DNA of 56,093 nt, counting the filler, from Sphacelaria rigidula (Eukaryota): NCBI GenBank assembly GCA_964200075.2. It is 7 parts of 7 records of this genome, joined end to end, with 100 filler letters (N's around TTAATTAATTAA, not from the genome) between each part and the next. Parts side by side here need not be neighbours in the genome. Positions count along the whole stretch, not along the records: positions 40,141 to 48,067 come from CAXNAA020012952.1; 6 more parts are not named here. One strand, written 5' to 3'. Position 1 is the stretch's first letter. Every line of letters starts with the position of its first letter. This document shows positions 7,929 through 48,190 of this stretch, one piece after another. The translations under genes and the position numbers were made by a program. The notes beneath the pieces are model-generated. The model did no database searches, had not been told where the DNA came from, and was given only the letters and a program-made list of their open reading frames with translations.

Positions 7929-8028
7929 NNNNNNNNNNNNNNNNNNNNNNNNNNNNNNNNNNNNNNNNNNNNTTAATTAATTAANNNNNNNNNNNNNNNN
8001 NNNNNNNNNNNNNNNNNNNNNNNNNNNN
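7929..8028. other. Artificial contig linker N44-TTAATTAATTAA-N44
   Basis: Identical 100-bp spacers at 7929, 15957, 23985, 32013, 40041 and 48068. Confidence 0.98.
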
Positions 8029-9731
8029 TTGTGGTGTATTGGTGCTCGCAAACTCTAGCAATATGCCTGTCTGCCGGCAGTACGTTCTGAAATCGTTGCC
8101 AATAAACTCACCCCCTTTGTCTGCCCTGAGTCGTTCGAGCCGAACGCCGCCGGTCTCACCCATGGTCATGACCAGTTGCAAGGTGCGTTGCACTTTGTTG
8201 TTGGCTGTCTTCGAATGGACTAGTTGATGGCTTTTCCCAACAGCACGAATATTTCAGTCTAGGACAGATCCACCGAAGTCCACCCCGTTACTTTTGACGG
8301 TTTTGAGAAGGTCCAAACTGTTTCTGTTCAAGTGCCCCATCCGCCGATGCCACAGCGTTGCGGCGCCCGCAGCTTGCATAGCCAGTCCAGGCGCGTCGTT
8401 GCCGCTGCTTACTCTAGAGAAAAGGAGTGTGACGTGGCTCGGTGGTATAGTGAGTTCCCAAACATCAACCAGACGTAATGAACCACGGCTATTATGGCCA
8501 GCACGCGGACTATTGGGGAAAGTGCCTCCTTGATTTCCCCAAATATGTTGTGAGCCCTGCGCCGGAACTCCAGACCCCCGGCCTCCTCGGTCCCGTTCGC
8601 CCCTTCGAAGGCACCGAACAGTCCACTGCCGTCAAATGAAGCAACGGGTTTGTTTATTGGAGAAACGGCCAAAGGTCGTCCGTTTCCCGGGGATCTTGCG
8701 TTCTGGGCGCTTTTAAGGCATTGAAAGAAATGGCCGGGATCTGCTCCCTTGCATCGGCGACTGGTGGGTAACCTGACCAATGCGCGAGATTTGCTGCCTG
8801 CTGGTTGTTCGCTGCCTGCTGGTTGCGCCGTTGCAAGAAACGGCACTCTTCGTCGCTGTGGGTTGTTGACATGTGGAAGGAGCACCACTTGCCTTCTGTC
8901 CCTTTGTTCTTGTCTCCCCCTGTCAGTGCTTTGGCCGCGTTTCGAGCAGGGCAATTTCTTTTAACGTGGCCTCGCTTCCCGCAGATGAAGCATGTTATGT
9001 GGTTTCTTCTATCACCACTACTTCCACTGGCCTGCATGCCAACCCCGCGGCCTGCGACCAAGTTGGTGGCATCTGGGCGAGAGAGATAGTCGGTATACAT
9101 GGTGCTGACCATGTATCGGAGATCCGCCAAATTAGATTCACGCCTCTCGCAGCTAGCAACACGAACCCTTTCGTACTCGGCAGGCAGGGCTCGGAGGACA
9201 ATGCCCTCGTACCGCTCGTCGGGTATACATTGTCCCATTTCATCTAGGCGATCACGGTAGCCGTCCATGACAAACAGGGAAGTCTTCCGGATCATCTCCG
9301 GACTGCATCGTTGTGTTGTGGAGTTTGTCGTGGAACTCTCTTCGTGCCTCTTTGCTGTTGCCGTCAAATTTGTTGTGCAGCGCTGCCCACGCTGCTTGTC
9401 CGTTCCCAACCCCATCCTGTGGGGTTTTCCCCATATGACGTCTGACGGTATTGTTTGCTGATGTTTCCGTGCTAAAAAACAGAATACTAAACAGATCATT
9501 GTTTGCACGGTCCCACGCCACTGAAGTTGTCGTATCACAGGGTGGTTGGCCATCATTAATTACGCTGGGCCTGGGTCTTTGCTGCCCCTGCAGGATTTCT
9601 GCGGCCGCACTGTGGTGAAGGGACAGGATCACCCGGAGTTGATCTTTGAATTCCCGGAAACTCGCTTTGTCTCTGCCATCAAACTTTGGACAGAGTTTCA
9701 GTACCCCTCGAATACCCTCACTGTCCGCCAT
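8029..9731 (-). pseudogene. Ty1/copia gag-pol, frameshifted and internally deleted, truncated at the contig end
   Basis: ATG at 9731. Copia-type Gag (WDRANNDLFSILFF, AWAALHNKF, VLRALPAEYE), zinc knuckle CFICGKRGHVKRNC, GAG-pre-integrase LWHRRMGHLN, and integrase core RLRADKGGEF..FASTNTPQ. Frameshifts near 9270 and 8660. Confidence 0.93.
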
Positions 9732-15870: not shown

Positions 15871-16260
15871 GATCGGGGGGGGGGGGGGGGGGGGAGATGA
15901 GAAAAGAGAAAAAAAGAAAAACAGCGCGCACGCACAAAAGAAGAAGTAAGAGTCGANNNNNNNNNNNNNNNNNNNNNNNNNNNNNNNNNNNNNNNNNNNN
16001 TTAATTAATTAANNNNNNNNNNNNNNNNNNNNNNNNNNNNNNNNNNNNNNNNNNNNTCTAATCTCAGAAATTATTTCTGTACCCCTACCGTAGCATCACT
16101 CTTGAGATAAAGGGCTTCTAGCAATTTTAACCTCAAAAAAAAATTGTGCACCCCTACCGTAGCATCACTCTGCCGGCAGATGGACGTATTCATGTTTTTT
16201 CCTCTCATAAATGATCTGATTTATGTTTTCGTCGTTGGAAAAACGCAAGGACGTGAGCAG

Positions 16261-22507: not shown

Positions 22508-22738
22508 GGTAGCACCTCCCCCCCCCCCCAGGCCGCAAAAACCTTATTCTGGGGTCGGAGGAGGGGGGGGGGGGGGGGGGGCCCGGTTTTTTGGGGGTGC
22601 CCCCCCCTAGCGCCGGGGGGGGGGGGTTGTAGGTTGTTTTCTTNNNNNNNNNNCCCCCACCACGGCCCCGCTGCGCCCCCTACCGACAAAAACGCGGCGG
22701 CCCCCCCCCCCCCCCCCCGGCGAAAAACCCTTTTTTGT

Positions 22739-22776: not shown

Positions 22777-25005
22777 CGATTTTATGGGGTTACCCCCCCT
22801 GATCGCTGGATGATGGCGATAGTAGTTGCTGTACTGCACCGCACGTGTATGCCGGTAGCGTCGGCCTGCGCTGGGTAAACCGACACGGTAGGTGGCGGGG
22901 GTACGTCGAGGCAAGTAGAGAAGAACATGTCCGTAGAAGCAGCGAGTGACGAACAAGCGAGGCGGCGAATCGGATGATCTTCCCCGTACAGCACCTTTGT
23001 TGGCAGATATGGCTTTGCAATTTGGTGGAAATGAGCCGGCCCAACACACCTATTGTGCAGACAAGACAGACCAGCACTACTGTATTGTCTGTACTGTCTG
23101 TGTACTGCCTGTATATTGAATACAACTATACAAGTACTGCTTCACGTAGATTTCATTTAGGATCTGCCACTACCTCGATGTTGGATACTTCCTTGAACGT
23201 CCACAATATTTCCCTTTGCAACCTCTCCCTGTCTTGTGTTGCAGTTGGGTACAACGGCGACATGTAGATATACGCGTTGTACGAACACGGCTGTCTGCCC
23301 AAACGCGGGCAAAGTACGTGATCATGTGCAATTCACACATTGTACATATTTATAATATCATAACATTTTCATGCCGGCTGGTAACACCGCGTAGTCAAGT
23401 TCCAGCATATACATTTCATTCAGTAGCAGCACAGAACTACTCGTCGTACACCGCCTTCTCCAGCATAGCGACCGTAGCACTGCGATAGTGCCACGTCTGT
23501 AATAACCACCAGTCTTGCCAAAGCCAGCGCGTCTCAATACTCATAATCCAGTGATCACCGCGACGCAAAATTCATTATCCAGCCGGCAAATTTCCTCCCC
23601 GCAGGTAAAAAAAAACAAATAATACACCGAAACTCTTCGGTTTTGGGCTACTCACGTCGAGGCGAACCCTGGAGCAGTGCTACGATAGGGATTGCACTTT
23701 TTGTTTCTGGGCCTTGTTTTTGTAGGAGCCCAAATATATGGGGCTTACTGTGCTACCCAAATCTCCGGGGACAGGACATGGAAATGCACACAGGGGCCTT
23801 TTCGTGAATCGGCATCATTTTAAGTTTTTTTCCAAGTGAAAATGATGCCGATTCTCGAAATGATCCCTGCGACACCTTGAGAAACATTTCGCTTAAAAAG
23901 TGCAACCTTACCGAGGCATCACTCCCTGCGTGATCGAAATGATCATTCAATTGTATGTACTGGTGAAGAAACAGGAACACTAAGNNNNNNNNNNNNNNNN
24001 NNNNNNNNNNNNNNNNNNNNNNNNNNNNTTAATTAATTAANNNNNNNNNNNNNNNNNNNNNNNNNNNNNNNNNNNNNNNNNNNNTGCGGTGGTACCCGTA
24101 CAGCGCGGAAGAGCATGTGCAAAGCCGTGCTATACGATAGGTTGGGTGTTTAATTCCAGGGAAAAAAGACTCTAAGATGATCCGGATAACCTGACTCACT
24201 CGCCGCGTGCTTGTATCTGGGTAAAACGGCCTCAAGCAGTACAGTACTGTACGGATTAGCGTTCTTTATCGGTAACGCGCGTTCTGGAGATGGTTGCTCC
24301 TAAAATCGATTCGAAGTTGAATTTAGTGCAAGCACGGCACAGAATACCCCCCGTCCTATCCTAGCACCACTTTACATGTTTGTGCTATCCCTGTCTCGTT
24401 GAATACGCGACAGCAGTATATTCGACTTAAATGTCGACGAGGGAAAGGGGCTGCTGAACCCCCCTCGCGATAAAATATAGAGGCAAGCACCCCAGAAGAA
24501 AGATGGAGTACTAAAAATAAACACATGAGGAAAAAACCTCCTGGGTTGGCCTTCATCCTGTGTCACCCCGACTGGTGCGCCCACATATACCGAAAGGTGT
24601 AGACCGACGTCCAGAATAGATGGGACGACAACTCACACACAGTATCGTAAACACAGCCGCCGGATACCAAGCCGGCACAGTAGACAGCGTTGGGCACATA
24701 GGCAGTGCACCTCGGCGCCCGCTAGTCATTCACAAGTGCTGCACATGTCGGTGTCTGGTACAGCACTATCGAGTTGAGACAGTTGAGGGTTGTACTACTA
24801 CTGTACTGGTGCACTGTCTGTAGACTGTCTTGTATACTTTCGGTAGGAAGTGTTCTGTACTGTACCACTCAGACTGTCTGTACTACTATACTACTATTGT
24901 CTGTAGTACAAGTGTGCACATGCCTATGCGTGTCCGTTTGCATACGTCGAGAAATTACAGTAGTTCTCGATAAAGGTTCACCACAAGCAGTAATCCTAGC
25001 TGCGT

Positions 25006-29634: not shown

Positions 29635-32126
29635 ATACCACCAGTAGCACCAATACCAACAACGGCACCTGCACCAGCAACAACGATCACCATCCTGAAT
29701 CGCTACTCGATGAAGCGCACCGCCCTCGACAGGACACGCGACACCGGCTGACTGAAATGTCGTTTGACGATGAGCGAGCAGGGCTGCGAACCTCGTCTTG
29801 CGGTCATCATATTTTCGATTTACAACACAACATGCTCGCTCTGTTGAAATACTGCATACCTCACCGCCCTATAAATATCGAAATACTGTCCAACACAGTC
29901 GAACATGGGTAAAATCGTAGGGAGTATCACACATGGGCGGTGTCTAGCTATACCGCATCAGATACGGTAGAAACACTGTGTTGCTCTTCTCTTTGAATTT
30001 CTACAAGTATAATTTATCGCCCGCCGCACTCCAACTCCATAACATGGAGCTTCCACATGCTGCATGGTTCGTCAGTGACCCGTGCTTACTGGAGATTGAC
30101 TGTCACACAAAATTTGCGGAAGACATTGTCAACTTGAAGCCGTGTTGCAGAGGATGACCATTTTTTTTTTCTTTTTGTTCCTTCAGTCCACTACATGACT
30201 TTGTCTCCTTCACTTTACTTTTGTCTGATCTGGGTACGTCTATCTTGTGGATAATGACCGCGCCGGGGTGGGTACCTCGGCGATCACTTAATGTGCGATA
30301 CAGAGCCCGACAGATGTTGAGAAATTCTTGTTTAGAGCTAGGCTCGGCGTCTCTTACTTTCTCTCCGATTTCAGCAAAAATGCTCAAGTCCGAATTATTT
30401 TTGTTCGAAGAGGCGCAGAACGCCAAATGCTTAGTTTTGAAATTCTTAATTTGCACAGGCATAGAGGTAGGAAGCATATCCAGGATACAGTGCCCCCTAC
30501 TCTCATCCTCTGCCAAAAGGGACTGCAGGTATAGTACTGTACCGTGCGCCAGCAGTAAGCAGTACATAATACAGTACAGTAAACTGCACGAATTTCGTAC
30601 AGACTGCCATTATCCATGGGGTGTCCCCGTAGAAGTCAATGTTGCAGGGGCAGGTCGAGTAGAGTATACTCGATTGCGGGGTATTATGAAACTCGTACCC
30701 AAAGTACACAAATGGGGGGTAGGGTTTTAGGGATCGCTTTCCAGTTATTTTTTGGATACGACTCCAAACACTCTACCCTAAGTTGAGTACCTCAAGTACG
30801 TCTTTCAAAATACCCCTTTTTTTATTGAGTATGCTCTACTCGACCTGCTCTTGCAATGTTGTTTGCCAGTTGAAGAAAGGAGGCAGCGGCTTGCTTGAAG
30901 GCCTGAAGTAGCCGTGGTTTTTTGTGGAGGCATTTTTGTTATCGTTCTGAGGTGCAGTGCATTCTTGCACGTTCTTACCTGCCGATCCCCTTGCACTTTC
31001 CGATTTCTGATTTTTATTTTCAACTCGAGTTCAGCACAAATGCTTGCCCGTGAATACTTGAATTTCAGAAAGAAAAAAAAACGAGCCTGAGATTCTCAAC
31101 TGTGAAATTATTAACATATGTCGCGCTCTGTAATCAAACTCATCAATCACATGCTTCAACGCACAGTGATCAGAGAACAGTGGACTAAAATGGCAGTTCC
31201 GTGCCGTAATGTACGCAAAATTTACTTTGATTGATTGTCGCACTTTGACTGAGCGCCCAGGGATCCAGCCGTGGTCGCATGATACATGTACCTGAAACAC
31301 TCGCTGAAAAAAAAAAGAAACAGAAAAAGTCGAACAGAACGAAATAGTAGACTAAGACGCAAAAAAAAAAAAAGTCAACAAAGAAAAACATACACACAAA
31401 GAAATGGCCGGTCTAAAACAAAAACGAAAAAAAAGAAAAAGAAAAGACTAGTGCACGTATATCGACTATATGTTCTCGCGTGTGTTGTATGTAATGGTGG
31501 ACTAAAGAGGCCAGCCACTTCTATTTTTTCCCTCCTAATTTCGGATACGCTTGTTATAGATACCTGACGCTCATTCATGCCGATGAACATCGTTTCGAAC
31601 CAAATACAAGCGCACTGCGAGTGTGGTAGGTCGTCTGACACACTTACAAGCCTCTTTTTTCGTGCAATTAAATACCCCCCCCCCTATCGTAGGATGACTC
31701 TTCCCTTCTCTTCCCTTCCCTTCTTTTCTCTTATTTTCTCTTCTTTGCTGTCCTTTCCTTTCTTTTCTCGTCCATTCTACCTTTTCCGTATTTTTCTTCC
31801 TTCTTCTTCAGCGAGCGATTCAGTTTTGTTTTGTCTCGGATACGTCCACCACGTCAACACGGCTGCAACCCGCGCGGGGGGCGTACTCATTTGTTGCTTG
31901 CCTTAGCCGTTTGACCATTGACCACGCATCCCTTTCGAGACGCGGGGGGGGGGAGGGTGTACTCATGATCATGCATGCCATAGTCATCAGACCATTGACC
32001 TCGCATCCCTACNNNNNNNNNNNNNNNNNNNNNNNNNNNNNNNNNNNNNNNNNNNNTTAATTAATTAANNNNNNNNNNNNNNNNNNNNNNNNNNNNNNNN
32101 NNNNNNNNNNNNCCGTTGTAGTTGTG

Positions 32127-36538: not shown

Positions 36539-38583
36539 CATGGTCGGGGGGGGCGGGTACGTGACAAAGATGGAACATGTAATCCATCCTCCATTTCGCA
36601 GCACAGTGGTTCCAAGTGCTGCACGATGGAGGAAGATCAGATGCTGTTTTCCGTCTCTAACCCTTCATTATTACCCACCAAACTTCGGTCCCCATCACAC
36701 CGCACAGTCGATGTGACTACATGTGCTTCGAAGCAAACCCTGAAGCAGTTTCCATGGTATGTCTTTTGTTTCCGACAGCTTACAGTATTACTGACGACAC
36801 AAGGAATCGGCAGACCGTGAGTGTTTCTTTTCTTTCCTTTTTTTTCTCTGATCACGAGCTGGAGTGTTGCAATCAGCTACGTAATGCGCGATCATCTTTT
36901 CGTGTTGCTCGTGCTTGTGTTTGTGTTGTGTATGTCTTTGTTCGTCTTTATTTTGTTGTTCTTGTTGCTTGGTGGTGGTGGTGGTGGTGGCGGTGGTGTT
37001 TTTTTGTTAATATCACTGCGCCCTTTCTTTCCTTTCTGAGGCCGTTGCTCCTGTCTTTTTCTGGTCCTTTCTTTCTTCTTTATTTTTATTATTCTGTTTT
37101 ATTTTTGCTGCTCCTAACCACGGGCCGGATTGTAGCAATCAGCTAATGTGATATAATCAACCAATCAATCAATCAAGTGTGCGTTTACACCTTGCGCGGC
37201 GATCCCGTAGGCACGCTTCATGCGCCGCCCCAGCGACTGTGACAAGCACATGTCTGGAATATCTTTCCCACTGGCGGCCAATGTTAATTGTTGCATGTAT
37301 GCCTGCGGGAGAAGATATTCCCCACGCTGTAAACCAAATGGACGCGGCGCAATTACTACCTGCTCAATGTGGATATCACATGTGGACCGATGGGTTTTCA
37401 CGCCGCACCTCACATGTTTTAACATCCGCCACCGAGATGGCAATATTTCAACGCACACGGCAGCTATCGACACAAATCGAATTGATCTGTATAGAAAAAC
37501 GCGTACCTACCAGTCCTCCACTTCTTGGCGGCCAGCACTCTTGTCACAGAATTGGAAGTTGGGGTGAAGTGAAGATAATCTACTTCAGATATTGCACTGT
37601 TTCGACACTCAATTGAAGTCTGCCAGGGCTTGAACGACGGCTAGTGTTTAGTAGAACCTGCCTCTAGAGTTTCGGCTTCGTGACGTCCGTCAGTGGTGAT
37701 ATTCTGTCGCGTGAAGGACGGATATGTTGGAAAATGACTCTCTCGCTCGTACAAAAAAGCAGTACTTTTTTTAGGGATATCCATCGCTGTTTTGTGAGCT
37801 GTACTGGGTGGAATCGAGCCGGACTCGGATGAGAAGGTAGCTCCAGATACATACTACAGTCGTGTATCGCTTTAGTTGCTATATAACCTTATGTACACTT
37901 CTTAGACTCCGTCACGTCTTCATTTTGGGGGGTGGTGGAAAACGTGACACTAACCCCCGGCGTAAAATTGTTCTGTTTGTTTGTGAACACCAGAATGGAA
38001 AATGGCTTGTGAAATTGTACAAAAGGTGAAACTGCTGGGCTAGATTTGGAAGTTATTGAGCGCCATTTTATGCGCTGTGGTGATTCATGTATTAATAGAA
38101 CTGAAATCTTCAAGGATGTGGTTTGAATCATGATCTGCGGGGGTTTGTCATTATTATTGTATACTCGCTGTATGTATTGCTTTCAGTGACTGATTACCCG
38201 CAATGGCTATTTGCCTGAAGTCGGTAAAATCTTCAGGGCGTGGTAAAGAGCGTGACACTAGCAAACGGCGCCACCGCTCGCATCACTTGGCAGTCACAAG
38301 GTGGTTATCTACAGCGCGCCTCGGTACAACCGATGCATCATCAGTATACACAACAATGAGGGCACAACAAGATAAGTAGCTAGAGTGAACATCTAAAGTG
38401 AAGAGGTGAATAGCCGAGGGTACGCAAAAAACACGGTTACGTGGACATAAGCGCGAAAGCTGGCCGACCCAAGCTCTCAGTTGAACGTTAGGCTGTCTCG
38501 ATTGCATGCCTGCTGTGTACCCAGGAGGTAACACGCAACACGGAAGAAAAAATGCTGGCGCACACCCGCGCAAATAAGCTTAC

Positions 38584-39089
38584 CTGAACTTCTCGAGCGA
38601 AGATTTCGTAGCATGGCCGATGTCGAAGCACTCCCCTGTGGACGACATGCGTCCCTCCTCGAACCAAGACAGGTATCGCGCCAATTGATCTCGGGGGTCG
38701 TGACCGGACGACTCGATGAGGCTCTGTGCCAGGCACAGGGCCAAGCTGGTATCATCTGTCCACTGACCCTTCTCAAGTCGGTGTGCGCCACCCCCGACCA
38801 TGTCTGTAACAGGAGGAAATGTGCCTCTAGTCTGAAACTCCGAGGTGCAGCCAACAGCGTCGCCGCATGACAGTCCTAATAAGACGCCGGCAACTCGGTC
38901 TGCGGTTGAGATGGCACCATCTTGTCGCTGCTGTTGTACCGCAGACGCGGACATCGTGAGTCTTGCCTTATACTCGACTGCAGGGTGCGCAAATGCTACT
39001 ACCGTACGGTACGCCAGCGACGGGTTCGCTGCTCCAGCGTTAACAATGGCGAGACAGGTGGTGGTGGTGACTATCACGCCCGTGTTCAT
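38584..39089 (-). CDS. ADP-ribosylglycohydrolase (DraG/ARH family), first exon
   Basis: LLGLSCGDAVG..EF, GQWTDDTS and GRMSSTGECFDIG motifs. ATG with an upstream in-frame stop; GTAAGC donor. Downstream exons not found in the contig. Confidence 0.88.
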
Positions 39090-39571
39090 TTCACCCTACT
39101 TGCTGCGGTTACCCTGGACTGGCTTAATTTTTCTCAGAATTTTCCTGCAGAACGGTAATATCTGTAGGAAGTGAGTCAAGCAGGTACTGTCTGTCGTATA
39201 CTAATAAAAAACGGTGATGCCAGGAACCCGAAGAACGTTCCGAGGGTGTCGATCATCCCCCCCCCGCAATACGTAGTATGCCTTCTGCTATCCGCTGGGA
39301 AGAGGTTATGAGCTGCTGTGTGCACAGATATTTGGCATATACGCCCTTGACACGGTGGACACGCCCCTCCCTAAGCTCATCTTGCGCAGCTCACCTTACC
39401 AAGATTACATTTTTTTATGAGCTCATGCTGCTCCGCGTCGAGTGTCGAGTGCCTCGAAAACATACCTGCAACCCGGATAAGTTTGACAAGGCGTGATATA
39501 TGATGTTGCTAATCTGGGTACAGGCTGTCGCTACGAGCTGGGCCAGCCTAGAGGCGGATTTGAAGTTTGCC

Positions 39572-39835: not shown

Positions 39836-40388
39836 TATCAAGAACCGGGTCGGTAGAAATTCGGAACAGTATTTCGCAGGCCACTCACCGGCCCACGTTT
39901 GGTTTTCGTGTATTGAAATTTTGTGTGGGCGCTCTCTAAGGCATAATTAACAAACAGAAGTGGGTCAGATTGATTTTTTTCATTTTTTTTCACTGGTTTA
40001 AGGCGTGTTACTATGGTAAAGACCATTTCTTCACGAGAACNNNNNNNNNNNNNNNNNNNNNNNNNNNNNNNNNNNNNNNNNNNNTTAATTAATTAANNNN
40101 NNNNNNNNNNNNNNNNNNNNNNNNNNNNNNNNNNNNNNNNGTTTTAGGCTTGAACCTCATCTCGGAGGTACACCTCAATTCTCACAATTTGTTGTTTATT
40201 GTTGTTTTTCTCGATATGAAAGGGCGAGACATCACACGCGAGTCATCAACCGGCGCATTTAGCCTTGATAGTCTTTCGTCTCGGGCTCGTGAACCCTATT
40301 TTTGGGGCACCCGTTGACAATTTATTTCAGTCGAATTCATCGGCTTTGGGGATACGTTTCAGAATGGCTGATATCACTTGATTTTCAT

Positions 40389-41239: not shown

Positions 41240-42380
41240 CGCACGAAAACATTTTGAATCGGTGATCGGCTCTTGTACTACACTAAAACGGTATTTCGTA
41301 TCTGCAGCCACTCTCCACAATTACAACACCACATGGATTGCAAAAGAGCACCAGCTATTGTATATACACTCATCACACGGATTATAAAAGAGCACCAGCC
41401 ACTAACACGGGACTTTACACGTTGGGGATACATTTTTCATTGGGGATAAAAACCCGCGGAATTCAATTCTTCGTATCCACACCAAATCTTCGGGATATGG
41501 TTCCATTTCCTCAATTGCTGGTAGCTATTGACAACTACTTCACGCCATAAAAAAAATGATTTCAATAACCGAAATATTGGGGTCCTGGGTAAAACAAATA
41601 TTTGGGGTCCGATCGGATCACCTGAATTCCCCAATATTGGTTTTTCACCTAGGACCCTAACATTTCGGTCATCAAAATCCCAAATGTATGGTGTGTAGAA
41701 GTCATCTATAGCTACCAGCAAGTGAAAAAATGGGACTATATTTCGGAGAGTTGTTGTGAATATGAAGATTTTAGTTCTCCGGATGCTCATCCCCAATAAA
41801 AAATCCATCCCCAATTTATTTGTAAAATCTCGTGCTCACAGCAGTACTCCATTGCTCAATCGCTTCATTGCACAATCGCTGTCGTCAGTGTGGTGCACGA
41901 CGATAGTACTGTAAGTTCGAACGTTTATATTGCCCACGGTATCGCAAATTGACTTTTAATTTAAAATCTATTGAAAGAATTGGCGATCGGCTCTCGCACT
42001 ACACTACAATAGTAGCTCATATTTGTAGTCGCTCTCACGAAGCTGGCATCACCTCTAATCAAGCCGGTTGGCGTGTTATGCTTGCCTCTCTCAACAAGTA
42101 CGACACCACATGAACTGTAAAAGAGCACCAGCTATATATGCTCACCACACGGATTATTAAAGAGCACTAGCCACAGCAGTACTTTATTGCTCTGTCGCTT
42201 CATACCTACCACAACAAGTGTGGTACTTTATTGCTCAGTCGCCTCATTGCACAGCCGCTTTTGTCAGCGTGGTGCATGACAGTACTATAAGTTCAATTTT
42301 TATACTGTACACGGTACATGAATTCAATATTGAACGGTATTGAAATTTGGAACTTTATATTTCAAATCTATTCAAAGATT
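41240..42380 (+). repeat. Diverged tandem repeat, ~300-340-bp unit
   Basis: gatcggctct..aaaagagcaccagcta..cacggattat at ~41265 and ~41985; cacagcagtac at 41837 and 42172. Confidence 0.75.
41404..41836. mobile_element. 433-bp foldback MITE inserted into the tandem repeat
   Basis: Termini aacacggga/tctcgtgct with imperfect pairing along the length. Flanks cact/caca. Empty site gccacagcagt in the next unit. Confidence 0.82.
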
Positions 42381-42526
42381 TAGTTTTTGAAATCCATATC
42401 ACGGGTCGATCCAGGAATCGTGCCAGGTCCTAAGGCAGCATTATGCCTTCCTCCATTCGCTAGGGTTAGACGTGTGTCATGTTCCAGTTTTGAGCAATCA
42501 GGGGGGGTTCCGAGCCCACTGGGATC

Positions 42527-43296
42527 ACTTCGTTGTCCAGACTTCTACTTGAGTCTAGACCTAGCATCAACAATCAATACACGACACAACGACTCTCCAA
42601 TCCTGCGATTTGTCTTGTACTGCTTCCACTGCCTCATTACCGAAGATCCGCTGACCACATCTCTAGTGAGCTCCCGGGTCAACGATCTTACATCGAGAAG
42701 GCAATCGCATGCAGATACCTTGTAATGGTTTGGGGTTACGTGCAAGACATCTAGAGGCAGCCAGCTGTACATCCAGACAGCTGCTATCGAGAAGCCTTGC
42801 CAATACTCTGGGTATGCGCTAGTCTTTTCTTAAGATATGTTCCATGGTGTCCAATCCGAGAATCGAACTCAAGTTTCCACAACCACAATGGACTAATTAT
42901 ACTAATTATATTTATTATAATATAGTACACCACATTGTGGTTGTGGAGACTTGAGTTCGATTCTCGGGTTGGACACCATGGAACATATCTTAAGAAAAGA
43001 CTGGCGCATACCCAGAGTATTGGCAAGGCTTCTCGATAGCAGCTGTCTGGATGTACAGCTGGCTGCCTCTAGATGCCTTGCACGTAACCCCAAACCGTTA
43101 CGAGGTATCTGCATGCGATTGCCTTCTCGATGTAAGATCGTTGACCCGGGAGCTCACTAGAGATGTGGTCAGCGGATCTTCGGTAATGAGGCAGTGGAAG
43201 CAGTACAAGACAAACCGTAGGATTGGAGAGTCGTTGTGTCGTGTATTGATTGTTGATGCTAGGTCTAGACTCAAGTAGAAGTCTGAACAACGAAGT
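42527..43296. repeat. 770-bp palindrome: ~364-bp arms with a 42-bp AT-rich spacer
   Basis: Arms 42527-42890 and 42933-43296 are highly similar reverse complements. Confidence 0.95.
42923..42978 (+). pseudogene. 5'-truncated tRNA-His(GTG) copy with encoded CCA; shorter antisense copy at 42845-42890
   Basis: CCACA-TTGTGGT-TGTGG anticodon arm, AGAC variable loop, TTGAG-TTCGATT-CTCGG T arm, GTTGGAC-A-CCA 3' end. Confidence 0.8.
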
Positions 43297-43698
43297 ACAA
43301 CGAAGTTCAAGAAGTCTAAAGAGTCGTGCTTCATGAACGGCAATTGCGGAATATGCACCAAAGTAAAGGATCCTGGCACATGAAACGGTGCCTGGGATAA
43401 AATTCATGTTGCACGAATGATGGGTGAGAACAAATGCAGTTTGATCCATGTGCATGAAAATGAGAAGTGGGGAATGTGTACGCGTGATCCACGCAGTCCG
43501 ATTGACATGTTGAAATAATGTACGCTTCAGTCATACCGCACGAATGACTGATGTGAATCTTGTACGGCAACAGTTCGGAGCTTGATGCATGAAAGACGCC
43601 GCCGCGGCCTTTTCTTTTCGTGTTTCCACGAACATGACACCGCATACAACGCGGATACATACTGTATCATACTGTATTTCACAAAACGAATTAATAGG

Positions 43699-44418
43699 CT
43701 ACTGATCGTCCTGCGACCCGGGCATACTCAAGTCTAGAGGTGGTACTATATGCTCTCTTGTCATCATCGCTGTCGTGTTTCCTTCCCTTCTGGTATGTCC
43801 ATTCGTTTGCTGCCCCTTCGAATCCCGCCCGTCCTCGCCATTGACGGACCTTCCATCATTTCTCCTCCCTCTATCGCCTACATCTACGCTCCCGCCGTGA
43901 TCCCGGCACCGGCCGGACCCACTCCCCCGCCCTTCGTCATCACCACGGTCTCTGCTGTCGTCATCGGTGGTACTTATCTCAGCCCGACCGGTCCCACCGT
44001 ACGCACGCCCGTCTCCCTCTCCGTGCGCATCACTACCCTTAACTACTTTCCCTGCCCCGGCTGCCACCGCGGGCGCCTCCACCTCTGAGTCTTGCCCCGA
44101 CCCAGCTAGAGCGATATTGGTGGCCTGGCTCGCTACCCTATCCCAGACGGCGACAGGAGGGCGGGCGCGTGGGGGCGGCGGCGGCCGACCGTCCCGTCCC
44201 GAGTAATCTTGGTTGGAGATCACGTCAAAACCGGCACGTAGTCGATCGGCATGCCGTCTGTAGGACGGGCGGTTAAGGGCGCGCTCCTCGCTGATGACCT
44301 CGGCCTGCTGGTGCCGGCGGACGTTTTGCTCGCTAACTTCTCTTCCCCGTGTGCGCTTGCTGAGGCCGCGCTCTGCCACGCATTTTGCTTCCTCGGACTG
44401 CTTGACTTGCCCCTTTGA
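43699..44418 (-). CDS. Conserved unknown protein, probable terminal exon (EERALNR..GFDVISNQDYSGRDG)
   Basis: CAG acceptor in phase 0, 240 codons to TAG. Confidence 0.7.
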   Translation of the reverse strand, partial: SKGQVKQSEEAKCVAERGLSKRTRGREVSEQNVRRHQQAEVISEERALNRPSYRRHADRLRAGFDVISNQDYSGRDGRPPPPPRARPPVAVWDRVASQATNIALAGSGQDSEVEAPAVAAGAGKVVKGSDAHGEGDGRAYGGTGRAEISTTDDDSRDRGDDEGRGSGSGRCRDHGGSVDVGDRGRRNDGRSVNGEDGRDSKGQQTNGHTRREGNTTAMMTREHIVPPLDLSMPGSQDDQ

Positions 44419-45472
44419 CTGCTTGTGAGTAATAGCCGTGGGTCAGATATTCAACACGACGGATTATTTGCGATTGTCGAACAGTGCGTCGTGTTCCATG
44501 TCCATGTGTGTTGTTCGTCGATGATGGTTTATTGTGCAGATGCGATGCGGTGCCAGAAATACCGGCAAGCGTTAGTCGTTCGGGGAATAAGAGAGGGAGG
44601 TGAAGGATCAGTACGGTCAGCCTAGAGATCATTCGGTTGAAGGGGGGGGGGAGGGGTATAATCCAGGATACGATTCCAAGCATGTCAAAACCCTGAGAGG
44701 CTGGGTGTCAGCTGACTTCAGCTTCGTACTCATGGCTGAGAGCTGAGAGAATGCTGTCATGCTCATACCTAAGCACTCAGCTCTAACTTAATCTAGCTGT
44801 TAAATTCCTCGTTTTCATCCAACCCTGAGCAAAGTGGGTCAATGTGATCACTTGGTTATAGATGTCTGTCTACACTAGCCATCATATTGATGCATCTTCT
44901 CAAGGAAGCTTATCCCTAAGCGTATAGTACCATCGAGCATGCCCATTTGATACCATTGCAAAAATATGATGCCTGGACCGAAAAAATAGGATTCTCCAGT
45001 GTAAGAAGGGCGAATGGCCCACTCTCCTCAGGAACGATGAAGGCCATCCACCAAACCACTCCAATTTTCGCAACAACAAAAGTTCATCACAGACACACAC
45101 ATTCATGTACGTGCGTATCGTGTCTGAATGTAACAGAATCATGATACGGAGGAACGGTACTCGAAACGAGCGTACCGTTGAATATTGAGATCTCTAGATC
45201 ATATCAATAGATTCGGAGCTGCATCGAAATGTATCTAGAGCTGTGGGATATATCTAATATCCCGCGGGCGAAGACTATGCCGCGCGGGGCAAAACAATGT
45301 CCCGCGGGACTTCGATACGCCACGCGGGACATTTGGTTGAGGTGTGGTTCCAGTCGTTGTAGATTAGAGTTGCCGGCGCCCTCTTGGTTCACTTCCTTTT
45401 TATCCGTCTCAATGAGTAGTACATGAGAGGGTCACGTTCATGATTTCACATTCACCGGACTTCGGTTTCACC

Positions 45473-45506
<34 letters not shown>

Positions 45507-45523
45507 CACACACACACACACAC

Positions 45524-45773
45524 CTCCTTGTTGATGATATCATACTCGTTTCCCTCGCCATACCGAATGCTGGGTGGCAGCCGGTGTTTTTGGGCCTTGC
45601 CCTGCATTGCCTCCAACCTTTCCCTAGTGCGGACGAAATCCTGCTCCTTTTCACGGTCGTAGTACGTACCGGCGATGAAATTGTAGTCGTGCGTCCGGCG
45701 GTACTTTTCTTCGGCCTTCTCGCGTAGGAACTTGGCTTCCTCCAACATGCGCTCATCGTGCTTTTCCAAGTAT
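45524..45773 (-). CDS. Same gene, exon (YLEKHDERMLEE..THDYNFIAGTYYD..YDIINKE)
   Basis: TAG acceptor and GT donor, phase 2/0; joins to give VLSNR-YLEKH. Confidence 0.82.
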
Positions 45774-45809
45774 CTATTTATCGTTGTTGTGTCACCCGAT
45801 TTGCAAAAC

Positions 45810-46042
45810 GAGAGACAGGAAGGGGTGAGGGAGAGAGGGGAAGATAGACAGAGAGAGTGGGGGCACACAGAGAGAGTGGGGGCACACAGAGAGTGGGAGG
45901 CAGAGACAGAGACAGAGACACAAAAGAAAGACACACAGACCCAGACACAAAGGGACACACAAACACAGAGACAGAGACAGGCAGAAAGACAGGCAGGCAG
46001 GTATGCAGACACACAGACACACAGACACACAGACACACAGAG
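45810..46042 (+). repeat. Intronic GA/CA-rich low-complexity microsatellite
   Basis: Read directly; (CAA)n(CA)n also present at 45472-45523. Confidence 0.9.
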
Positions 46043-46406
46043 ACGTTCACATCCTAAGATACGTATACGCAGTACACCGGAGTAGAGAACGGCAGCTAAC
46101 AAATAACTGCACGGTTAAGTGATACCGACAGCTTTGAGATTTTGGCACACGTGAACTGGGTCGTGATACTTGTCGCTTTTTCCCGTACACGTGTGTATTC
46201 CTCATGAAATCGATCAACGAACGAAAACGGGGTGGACCTCTAAGGTGAGACGAGAGATGAGCGAAACCCCGCGCTCGATCGACTGCGCTGGAGAGATGTC
46301 CACATAAAAAAAAAAAACACCAAAGCAGCGACCTGCAGCCATATATGAAGTACCACGAACGACGAGTATTTTTTCCCTGTTATTTTCGTGCCTGCCTCTC
46401 TCGCAC

Positions 46407-46618
46407 CTATTGCTTAGTACGTCCACGTCGCGCTTAAGGTGACTATGTGGCTTCTTGCCACCCCCCAATGTCACCGGCTTTTGTAGCAACACCTCGGGCG
46501 ACTCGCCCTCGGGGTAGATGAGGGCCAAAGAGTGGGATTTCTCCCGCGGTACATGGTTGACGATATCGTATGCTGTTCGTGTGTCCGGATGACGCTTAGG
46601 CTTTACCCTGCCTGAATC
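46407..46618 (-). CDS. Same gene, exon (DSGRVKPKRHPDTRTAYDIVNH..RDVDVLSNR)
   Basis: CAG acceptor, GTGCGA donor, phase 0/2. Confidence 0.8.
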
Positions 46619-47266
46619 CTGTACATGTATTGCAAAGGTAGAAGCGCGAGACGTGAACAGTAATGGAGTCGGGCTTCCTTGCATAGGTGGTAAAGAGCGC
46701 TGACGTGAGTGATGAGCCTCGCGCGGACTGAACCATGGCCTATAGCTTGACAATTTAGATAGACGCTAGCACGTGAAATCGATATAAACACAGAAACAGT
46801 ATGGCGAACAAGACGTGCTGGAGCATAGGGTAACTGAATGGCGTCATTATTGTCTTACAACACTCACGCGGCCTCACAATAGGTAGGAATATGCTGTTTT
46901 GACGCTCACGTTGATTATTCCGAAAGACTACTGAACGAAATACTGTGGCTCTCGCGGTGTCAGTCCACCGGGAAGAGAGGGTCTACATCCGACCGAAAAC
47001 GCATGAAGGTGTCTTTCCCGAACCTCCTCACAAACATGTACCACGGGGATATAGTGATGATGTTATACCGGCCCGAATCGCGGGCGGCACTTGATTCTTC
47101 GAAGAGATAAGAGCATTCTGAAACACCGTTGCACGCAGGAGATCGAAAAATTGAGGCTTCTCCTTAGTATACACGGTTCATGTCGCGTATTTATACAAGT
47201 ATGATACCTACGATCCGGCACAGTTATGACCTTGCGAAAGCCATACGTGCATCCAATATCACCCAC

Positions 47267-47414
47267 CTCCCCTGCTGCTTTTCCCAGGTGCGAGCGGTGG
47301 TTCACAATGTCGTACTTCTGTTCCACTCTCAACTGGCGACTCTTCGCATTGTTCAGCGCCGCTCGCAGACGCTCCTCCTCTCGCTGTTTCCTCTTCGCTT
47401 CCTCTTGAGGATCC
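47267..47414 (-). CDS. Same gene, exon (DPQEEAKRKQREEERL..EQKYDIVNH); 5' exons lie off-contig
   Basis: CAG acceptor, GTGGGT donor, ends in phase 0. Confidence 0.78.
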
Positions 47415-48190
47415 CTGAAGTTTGCCCGGCAATGGTAGTAGGAGTACCAACGATGCGAAAGATTCTGGTGCTGCACAGTGGTTGAGCGATGAAACTGTCT
47501 TTAGTGTCACCACTAAAACTTCCACATCGTTATAGCTACGAACACACGTGAAGGAGCAAGGGATCCGCTGCGAACCCACCAGCGGTCAAAAGAAGGTACA
47601 CGAGTCCAAGGCGCAATATTAAACGGAAACACCTGCGCAAGAAAGCTCGAGAAAATGGAGGGTACGAAAAAAAGAAAAAAGACAAACACAGTAAACTGAA
47701 GAGAAAAACAGGAAAGAGGGGAGCACAACAAAAGGTAAGGGTAAAAGATGGTGAAACAATACGAGAAAAGAGATGAGGGAAGTACAAGATGAGAGGCAAG
47801 CTACGATGTAGGACCAGTTCCAAAAACCTCCGAGGGAAAATGCCGACCGGCCCCTGCCAGGGTTTCAAGCAAGAAAGCCATACAAAACGTATTGCCGTGG
47901 AAGCAGTCAGATGACTGTTCATGCGCACTAGTCGGGTAGGTGCTCTCACCCGCAAGCCTTTCAGGAGCGAGAAACAAACATAAAACGCGGCTCAGGAGTG
48001 GTGCTAAGATAGGGAGGGGTAGGGGTGTACTCATGATCATGCATGCCATAGTCATCAGACCATTGACNNNNNNNNNNNNNNNNNNNNNNNNNNNNNNNNN
48101 NNNNNNNNNNNTTAATTAATTAANNNNNNNNNNNNNNNNNNNNNNNNNNNNNNNNNNNNNNNNNNNNCAGTATCGTTTTTGTTGGGTACG

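Follow-up and report, generated by a model that had tools for sequence, protein, structure and literature searches.

In retroviruses and LTR retrotransposons, the 5' LTR is a CA-ended repeat that is directly followed by the primer-binding site (PBS), which consists of TGG and further complement to the 3' end of a tRNA including its CCA. tRNA-derived SINEs are built of a tRNA-related part and an unrelated body, and according to an old proposal some of them arose from tRNA-primed strong-stop DNA, an origin that predicts a CCA end. As a rule, plus-strand strong-stop synthesis stops once 18 nt of the tRNA have been copied, a single base short of m1A58, and where this stop is lacking the enzyme copies more of the tRNA; lentiviruses also exceed the 18-nt complementarity, which in their case reaches a second reverse transcriptase (RT) stop at position 54 (passages of PMC8599865). 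Of the 55 cytosolic isodecoders of yeast, no more than 33 have m1A58 (data from a part of PMC10275265).

Short non-autonomous LTR elements known as Helenus/TRIMp3 carry tRNA-like sequence, some of it His-like, and some of their families use a tRNA-His primer. As portrayed in the sections of PMC10886601 drawn on here, the tRNA-like part of Helenus lies inside the LTR and has A and B boxes, while a separate PBS and polypurine tract (PPT) are found between the two LTRs, and target-site duplications (TSDs) are 4–5 bp long. Among brown algae, the most abundant TE of Ectocarpus, RTEX-N1_Ec32, is a ~600-bp non-autonomous retroposon with a 5' head of unknown origin and a C-rich, RTE-X-like 3' end (excerpts of PMC12477816). 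In the text and tables of this survey that were examined, neither tRNA nor PBS is mentioned, and in the open-access literature we found no description of a contiguous PBS of at least 37 nt or of tRNA-His-primed elements of brown algae. In yeast, fold-back of a DNA end gives rise to inverted duplications with a tiny loop, the fold-back insertions being mostly 5–34 bp long, and cDNA captured at chromosomal breaks is inserted independently of integrase and without a TSD (both from portions of PMC11724301 and PMC11372161).

Here we describe a 770-nt palindrome in Sphacelaria rigidula, located in a joined stretch of 56,093 nt (hereafter the window), in which each arm consists of a repeat body and a tRNA-His-like part. 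Like the 5' LTR-PBS region of retroviruses and LTR retrotransposons, it has a CA-ended repeat followed by TGG and complement to a tRNA 3' end, CCA included, and, as in those systems, one tRNA-complementary core is found behind many repeat ends. Unlike them, the contiguous tRNA copy extends over 37 nt in the common core and over ~66 nt in the palindrome, as compared with 8–18 (or 22) nt, and it is this length that is the unusual feature. The locus also differs in that it lacks both an internal region and a 3' LTR, that the copy is mirrored, and that the LTR status of the repeat family is putative. It departs from Helenus in having the tRNA part with CCA abut a CA end, in its degenerate A box, and in having neither an LTR pair nor a TSD. 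With tRNA-derived SINEs it shares the tRNA-related part followed by an unrelated body, and its CCA end is the one predicted by a strong-stop origin; it is unlike them in that the commonest core is without the A-box half, the bodies are diverse, there is no tail or TSD, and the 5' acceptor strand is absent. RTEX-N1_Ec32 can be compared by description only, and a C-rich RTE-X-like 3' end of its kind was not seen here. The resemblance to the yeast fold-back duplications lies in an inverted copy that starts at a DNA end and leaves a tiny loop, although the inverted copy is ~380 nt long here. We propose, at roughly even confidence, that the locus is the fossil of the end of an LTR-type, tRNA-His-primed retroelement with an over-long primer copy, made palindromic by one fold-back.

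Geometry of the palindrome

A repeat search located the inverted repeat in two arms at 42527–42890 and 42933–43296 (364 nt each, 98% complementary, 42 nt apart), a palindromic repeat of a length that far exceeds chance. When the arms were aligned with each other, 9 of the 364 positions were mismatched, every one by a transition. Moreover, with three small gaps (6 nt, all absent from the left side), the pairing of the arms extends through the 42-nt spacer as far as a symmetry centre at 42908/42909, where a loop of ~6 nt is left. The self-complementarity score of the spacer, in which ACTAATTAT is present twice in tandem, is 22 vs. 13.8 ± 2.4 for shuffled sequence, and only one of 300 shuffles scored as high. 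The spacer is a degenerate palindrome, and the whole structure is a near-complete palindrome rather than two units placed around unrelated DNA. The features of the locus are collected in Table 1.

Table 1. Features of the palindromic locus, in coordinates of the window.
Feature	Position	Strand	Evidence
Outer extension of left repeat copy, outside the arm	42400–42526	+	Contigs at ~85% identity across the arm edge
Body of the left arm (318 nt), interpreted as the 3' portion of an LTR/U5-like repeat with the end ...ATATGTTCCA	42527–42844	+	
Left-arm tRNA-His complement, PBS-like: TGG (CCA complement), acceptor strand, T arm, variable loop, anticodon arm	42845–42890	+	
AT-rich centre, into which the palindrome continues in degenerate form; small deletions on the left, 6 nt in all	42891–42932	.	
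Right-arm sense tRNA-His(GUG)-like copy, positions 8–76	42913–42978	+	Rfam RF00005 and sequence reading
Right-arm body, inverse of 42527–42844	42979–43296	-	Repeat search and alignment
10-nt tandem duplication (ACAACGAAGT x2), outer edge of right arm	43287–43306	+	Sequence reading

These data bear out the 770-base palindrome of the initial annotation and the joining, in each arm, of a ~320-bp body directly to the 3' portion of a tRNA-His, as the two bodies measure 318 nt and no base intervenes. A further proposal, that tRNA had been copied to different extents and two products joined across an AT-rich spacer, does not agree with arms that pair down to a centre of ~6 nt and are 2.5% apart. The ACAACGAAGT duplication may be a trace of whatever terminated the inverted copy.

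As RNA, the 770-nt palindrome has a predicted folding energy of ~−740 kcal/mol. Matches to microRNA families within it all fall below their gathering scores and simply mirror the hairpin. In addition, the segment 42400–42486 was considered as a second copy of the body end, with which it shares ATGTTCCA, and was rejected on an alignment score of 22, vs. 20.4 ± 4 for shuffles.

The locus in public sequencing runs

Contigs of five public runs (X1–X5) from two studies were mapped over 41900–43900 at a likeness of at least 82%. The sampled 31-mers of the stretch were present at a fraction of 0.64–0.86 in X1–X4 and of 0.19 in X5. Exact contigs run from the unique right flank to 43256, which is 41 nt inside the right arm, in both X1 and X3, two runs that come from different studies. 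At the centre of the palindrome, position 42904 is covered in X1 at a depth of 32, and one X3 contig bearing a variant of its own (A>G at 42904) crosses the centre with at least 63 nt to either side; no contig lies over 42904 in X4 and X5, both of low coverage. Over the centre, sequencing depth drops to roughly half the value of the unique flanks (32 vs. 64 in X1 and 14.9 vs. 27.6 in X3), which may reflect heterozygosity or a second allele, or else a coverage bias at the hairpin.

Fold-back chimeras, arising in assembly or sequencing, are common in long-read data, and such an artifact would agree with the halved depth at the centre in X1 and X3, with the uncovered centre in X4 and X5, and with the fact that none of the contigs listed spans the entire structure. 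We nevertheless regard it as very unlikely indeed and give it next to no weight, because the arms differ by 9 mismatches and 6 nt of indels, and because exact contigs of X1 and X3 cover the right edge and the variant contig of X3 covers the centre. The recovery of the 31-mers in X1–X4, across two studies, likewise speaks against it.

In X3 only, one contig with a depth of 30.8, approximately that of a single copy, joins 42399 to 42999 on opposite strands. Expressed in left-arm coordinates, this joint is a jump from the outer end of the repeat family to a point 21 nt before the CA–TGG border, and it may represent a paralogous locus or an alternative allele.

The tRNA-His part and its junction with the body

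In both arms the body and the tRNA part meet with zero bases between them. The body end, ...GTTCCA, abuts TGG at 42845–42847, with the mirror-image CCA at 42976–42978, and the CA at 42843–42844 is followed by TGG and 43 further tRNA-complementary bases, beginning at 42845. A CA end behind which, within 0–5 nt, TGG and complementarity to a tRNA 3' end begin is the anatomy of an LTR-PBS border, and the suggestion that the body ends in an LTR-end/PBS-type junction was therefore well founded.

The Rfam tRNA model RF00005 aligned 42913–42967 to its positions 8–63 with a score of 20.7 bits, which falls short of the gathering score of 29 (E=0.017 for a 96-nt query). The alignment comprises a 5-bp anticodon stem, the loop UUGUGGU with anticodon GUG (His), a T arm and a degenerate D arm, and beyond the aligned portion the sequence continues through the 3' strand of the acceptor and the discriminator A to the CCA, which ends at 42978. 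ARAGORN called no tRNA on the palindrome because the 5' acceptor strand is absent. A 23-nt pattern taken from the tRNA part matched, at up to three mismatches, in two places where 0.00 were expected, and the 56-kb window holds no other copy of the tRNA part. That the copy includes CCA suggests a mature tRNA, and not a tRNA gene, as the template.

The ungapped repeat includes 46 nt of tRNA in either arm. Taken in full, the right arm holds ~66 nt of tRNA (positions 8–76), and the left arm holds the same stretch minus three small deletions that amount to 6 nt; the two arms were therefore not set by separate stops of reverse transcription. The earlier figures of ~56 nt on the right and ~46 nt on the left thus differ through the small deletions of the left arm and not through different end points, whereas the claim that the tRNA part contains the CCA complement and extends far beyond 18 nt stands.

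The tRNA-part pattern with CCA had no match in viral, prokaryote-genome or metagenome contigs, and a protein-level search with the ORF spanning the palindrome centre returned no relatives. Without CCA, the pattern hit seven metagenome loci, which proved to be two tRNA-Pro genes and five chance matches, none of them a tRNA-His.

Other copies of the body and of the tRNA core

Judged from contigs of four runs, which represent both studies, the body belongs to a multi-copy family, with bin depths of 6–32 times the flank in X1. The 23 non-exact arm pieces listed, beyond which there are 781 more, are 10.6–17.2% different from the palindrome sequence. Far greater depths are reached around the body/tRNA border, where the bin 42838–42904 has a summed depth of 27366 in X1, 9166 in X3 and 3560 in X4, vs. 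flanks of 64, 27.6 and 12, respectively. A 39-nt core at 42843–42881 stands at ~300–430 times the flanks, the highest value in the stretch, keeping in mind that a summed word depth is not a copy number. This core is composed of CA and the complement of tRNA positions 76–39, and it is framed by the best-supported branch points.

On the body side of the core, sequence that differs before 42843 yet keeps CA–TGG was found in 12 contigs of X1, 12 of X3 and 5 of X5 (agreement 0.51–0.61), and one contig each in X1, X3 and X4 has another CA-ended sequence (...42496) joined straight to 42845. Diverse CA ends in front of one PBS form the pattern that would be expected of different LTR ends on a shared primer-binding site. 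On the other side, five contigs each in X1 and X4 depart after 42881, i.e. after tRNA position 39, and continue with G, vs. A at the present locus. A canonical D arm is found in front of 42924 in three contigs of X3 and four of X4; in these other copies it is preceded by ACTAAT, which is also present in the palindrome centre. The loose ends considered here are the best-supported ones listed, and there are 402 further ones, among which contigs departing at the canonical 18 nt may exist. Finally, in a 3.4-kb contig shared by X1 and X3 the body begins at 42977 and no tRNA part adjoins it, which would fit a 3' or a solo LTR.

At the outer side of the body, contigs at ~85% identity cross the edge of the left arm (42399–42627 and 42417–42657), and family similarity stops at 42399/42400, where loose ends occur in five contigs of X1, two of X3, two of X4 and one of X5. 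As the similarity continues past the left arm edge to 42399/42400, the right arm, whose body ends short of the outer end of the family, is a truncated copy. In one contig each of X1, X3 and X4 a joint skips 42465–42532. An LTR start had been placed at 42475 (TGTCATG), which is not supported by a similarity that extends to 42399/42400 and by copies that skip the segment around it. The apparent outer end of the family reads T/CACGGG, with no TG start, and some copies seem to continue there with other sequence, so that the designation of the body as an LTR is putative.

The same copies bear on a different reading of the locus, namely a retroposon of Pol III type with a tRNA-His head, either a SINE or an element resembling Helenus/TRIMp3. 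It would consist of the head plus a body of ~450 nt and be present either as two head-to-head copies or as one copy folded back at its 5' end. Read on the tRNA-sense strand, the order is indeed that of SINEs, the tRNA-like part first and the body after it, and the T loop is B-box-like. The three to four contigs with a canonical D arm, which corresponds to the A box, and with ACTAAT before it, a motif shared with the palindrome centre, would suit a SINE head, and a Pol III-type head would equally accommodate element sequence lying 5' to the tRNA part; a weak further sign is that TTTT is absent from the tRNA-sense strand of the 318-nt body, where ~1.2 occurrences are expected. Related elements are also on record: LTRs that hold tRNA-like sequences, some His-like, are described in the sections of PMC10886601 used here, and the most abundant Ectocarpus TE is ~600 bp long and non-autonomous, the origin of its 5' head being unknown (excerpts of PMC12477816).

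Such a head is, however, at odds with the CCA and the CA-end complement that adjoins it, and with the commonest shared core, which begins at tRNA position 39 and so has no A box. The A box is degenerate in both arms, and a head with intact A and B boxes from tRNA position 1 was not found in either arm, the D loop being degenerate and the 5' acceptor strand absent. A SINE body ought to be conserved, whereas the sequences past CCA+TG are diverse, and at 42400 neither a TSD nor a tail of the A-rich, simple-repeat or LINE-like kind was seen. Against a Helenus/TRIMp3-like element it further counts that the copies at the locus are inverted, that no direct LTR pair exists in the stretch, and that neither a separate PBS/PPT nor a TSD was found. 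The initial annotation had made the tRNA length across copies the point on which a SINE would be told apart. This length does vary, with five contigs leaving after position 39 and three to four carrying the D arm, and the varying extent argues against a fixed SINE head. Cumulatively, we consider a tRNA-headed retroposon unlikely, and less likely than an LTR/U5 end joined to a primer-tRNA copy.

Proposed origin by fold-back of an over-long primer copy

According to the reading that we prefer, the left arm would represent, on the plus strand, the 3' end of an LTR/U5-like repeat followed directly by a DNA copy of primer tRNA-His. The copy would have been made in plus-strand strong-stop synthesis by a reverse transcriptase that met no stop at position 58. 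In this lineage the enzyme would usually halt beside G37, and in the ancestor of the locus it would have continued until close to the tRNA 5' end. Eukaryotic tRNA-His is described as carrying m1G37. If the primer has C38, the G observed after position 39 could be the copy of position 38; this putative link between the 38/39 end and m1G37 draws on a 30-letter consensus with an agreement of 0.54–0.56.

We hypothesize that this linear DNA subsequently formed a fold-back at its end and served as its own template, which would yield an inverted copy of ~380 nt. This could have happened by snap-back self-copy by the reverse transcriptase or, alternatively, by repair synthesis at a chromosomal break that captured the fragment, the latter route being inferred by analogy with the yeast fold-back insertions and cDNA capture. 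The product may have been fixed without integrase, because no target-site duplication was seen at the locus by eye. The nine transitions and the three small deletions near the centre would be later changes. The divergence between the arms is 2.5%, vs. 10.6–17.2% for the paralogues listed; since the arms are each other's closest relatives and the symmetry reaches the centre, one fold-back event is the most economical origin. Of the interpretation offered initially, the LTR/PBS junction and the over-long tRNA copy are thus retained, and the two joined products and the position of the LTR start are given up.

Two independent head-to-head insertions at one site, for instance through a target preference for the element's own tRNA-like end, would account for a right copy that is shorter than the left one. 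Retroelements that target Pol III genes are reported (PMC5006619). Yet the arms are 2.5% apart, when the paralogues listed differ by at least 10.6%; two insertions would not result in pairing through the spacer to a ~6-nt centre, and TSDs were not seen. On these grounds we consider this origin improbable.

We judge as very improbable a foldback or MITE-like DNA transposon with terminal inverted repeats of ~364 bp, in which the tRNA-derived sequence would be present by chance. It would explain the long inverted arms and the tiny loop, and brown-alga genomes are rich in DNA transposons according to the portion of PMC12477816 used here. The arms, on the other hand, are not flanked by a TSD at 42526/43297, the resemblance among family members extends past the left arm edge as far as 42400, the body is also found outside palindromes, for example in the 3.4-kb contig, and the tRNA core is found with many other partners. 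Copies that share both arm ends and have TSDs were not present among the contigs listed.

With regard to the remainder of a retroelement, the surroundings of the locus contain neither gag/pol nor a polypurine tract with a 3' LTR, and the body is not repeated there in direct orientation. A direct LTR pair around an internal region was not found, and outside the palindrome the body does not recur in the 56-kb window. A Pfam search of 260 ORFs of at least 80 aa returned, as the only retroelement trace, a decayed Copia-type gag, with no other gag/pol.

A more general proposal, which we put forward tentatively and consider on balance rather doubtful, is that the tRNA-His-primed LTR elements of this lineage regenerate a PBS of 37–38 nt and that the palindrome is fixed snap-back strong-stop DNA. 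The primer would then have no effective stop at position 58, synthesis would halt beside the modified G37 and would occasionally run to the 5' end, and the palindrome would be a natural record of RT stop sites on a modified tRNA and of the fate of read-through. If this were true, the genome would keep hundreds of natural read-outs of how far RT copies its primer tRNA and would link tRNA modification (position 58 vs. 37) to PBS length in a lineage with barely described TE biology; the outcome of read-through, whose products retrovirology treats as dead ends, would also come to light. Should the reading fail, the locus would be an ordinary inverted duplication of a transposon fragment.

Neighbourhood of the palindrome

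An ORF at 43699–44442 (−) ends 403 nt from the right arm and has no Pfam match. The palindrome had been said to lie ~400 bp past the stop codon of a gene; the distance is confirmed for the end of this ORF, and the status of the ORF as a gene is putative. Putative read-through from it could give a long hairpin RNA, and the locus is a candidate source of such RNA next to an ORF. The palindrome itself probably has no function now, being most likely a defunct side product of retrotransposon replication and not a working gene, and would form a long hairpin if transcribed.

Further along, at 45455–47500 (−), several ORFs share a repeated, charged motif containing (Y)DI(V/I)N(H/K), interrupted by GT/CTG-type microsatellites; a single gene, located upstream of the ORF at 43699–44442, probably includes them as its exons. 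Immediately to the left of the palindrome, 41837–42381 contains direct repeats ~380–400 bp apart with 72–88% identity. The bin 42034–42100 has ~46 times the flank depth in X1, and another repeat family is therefore present on this side.

The stretch overall has short ORFs and sparse Pfam content. Its N blocks at 7929–8028, 15957–16056, 23985–24084, 32013–32112, 40041–40140 and 48068–48167 (paired 44-N, at ~8-kb intervals) are filler between the joined parts, and a 10-N run at 22644–22653 looks like masking and not biology. The decayed gag, of Ty1/Copia type, lies at 8257–9559 (−), 33 kb off along the joined stretch. Adjacent ORFs there match zf-CCHC (E=1.2e-5) and, weakly, gag_pre-integrase, and the gag is cut by the N block 7929–8028; the region upstream of it contains no tRNA-His-like PBS. 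At 38583–39095 (−) there is an exon of an ADP-ribosylglycohydrolase (Pfam E=3.8e-26), for which the best named eukaryotic relatives are brown-algal, from Scytosiphon and Hapterophycus at 67–68% identity, and many bacterial relatives score about equally.
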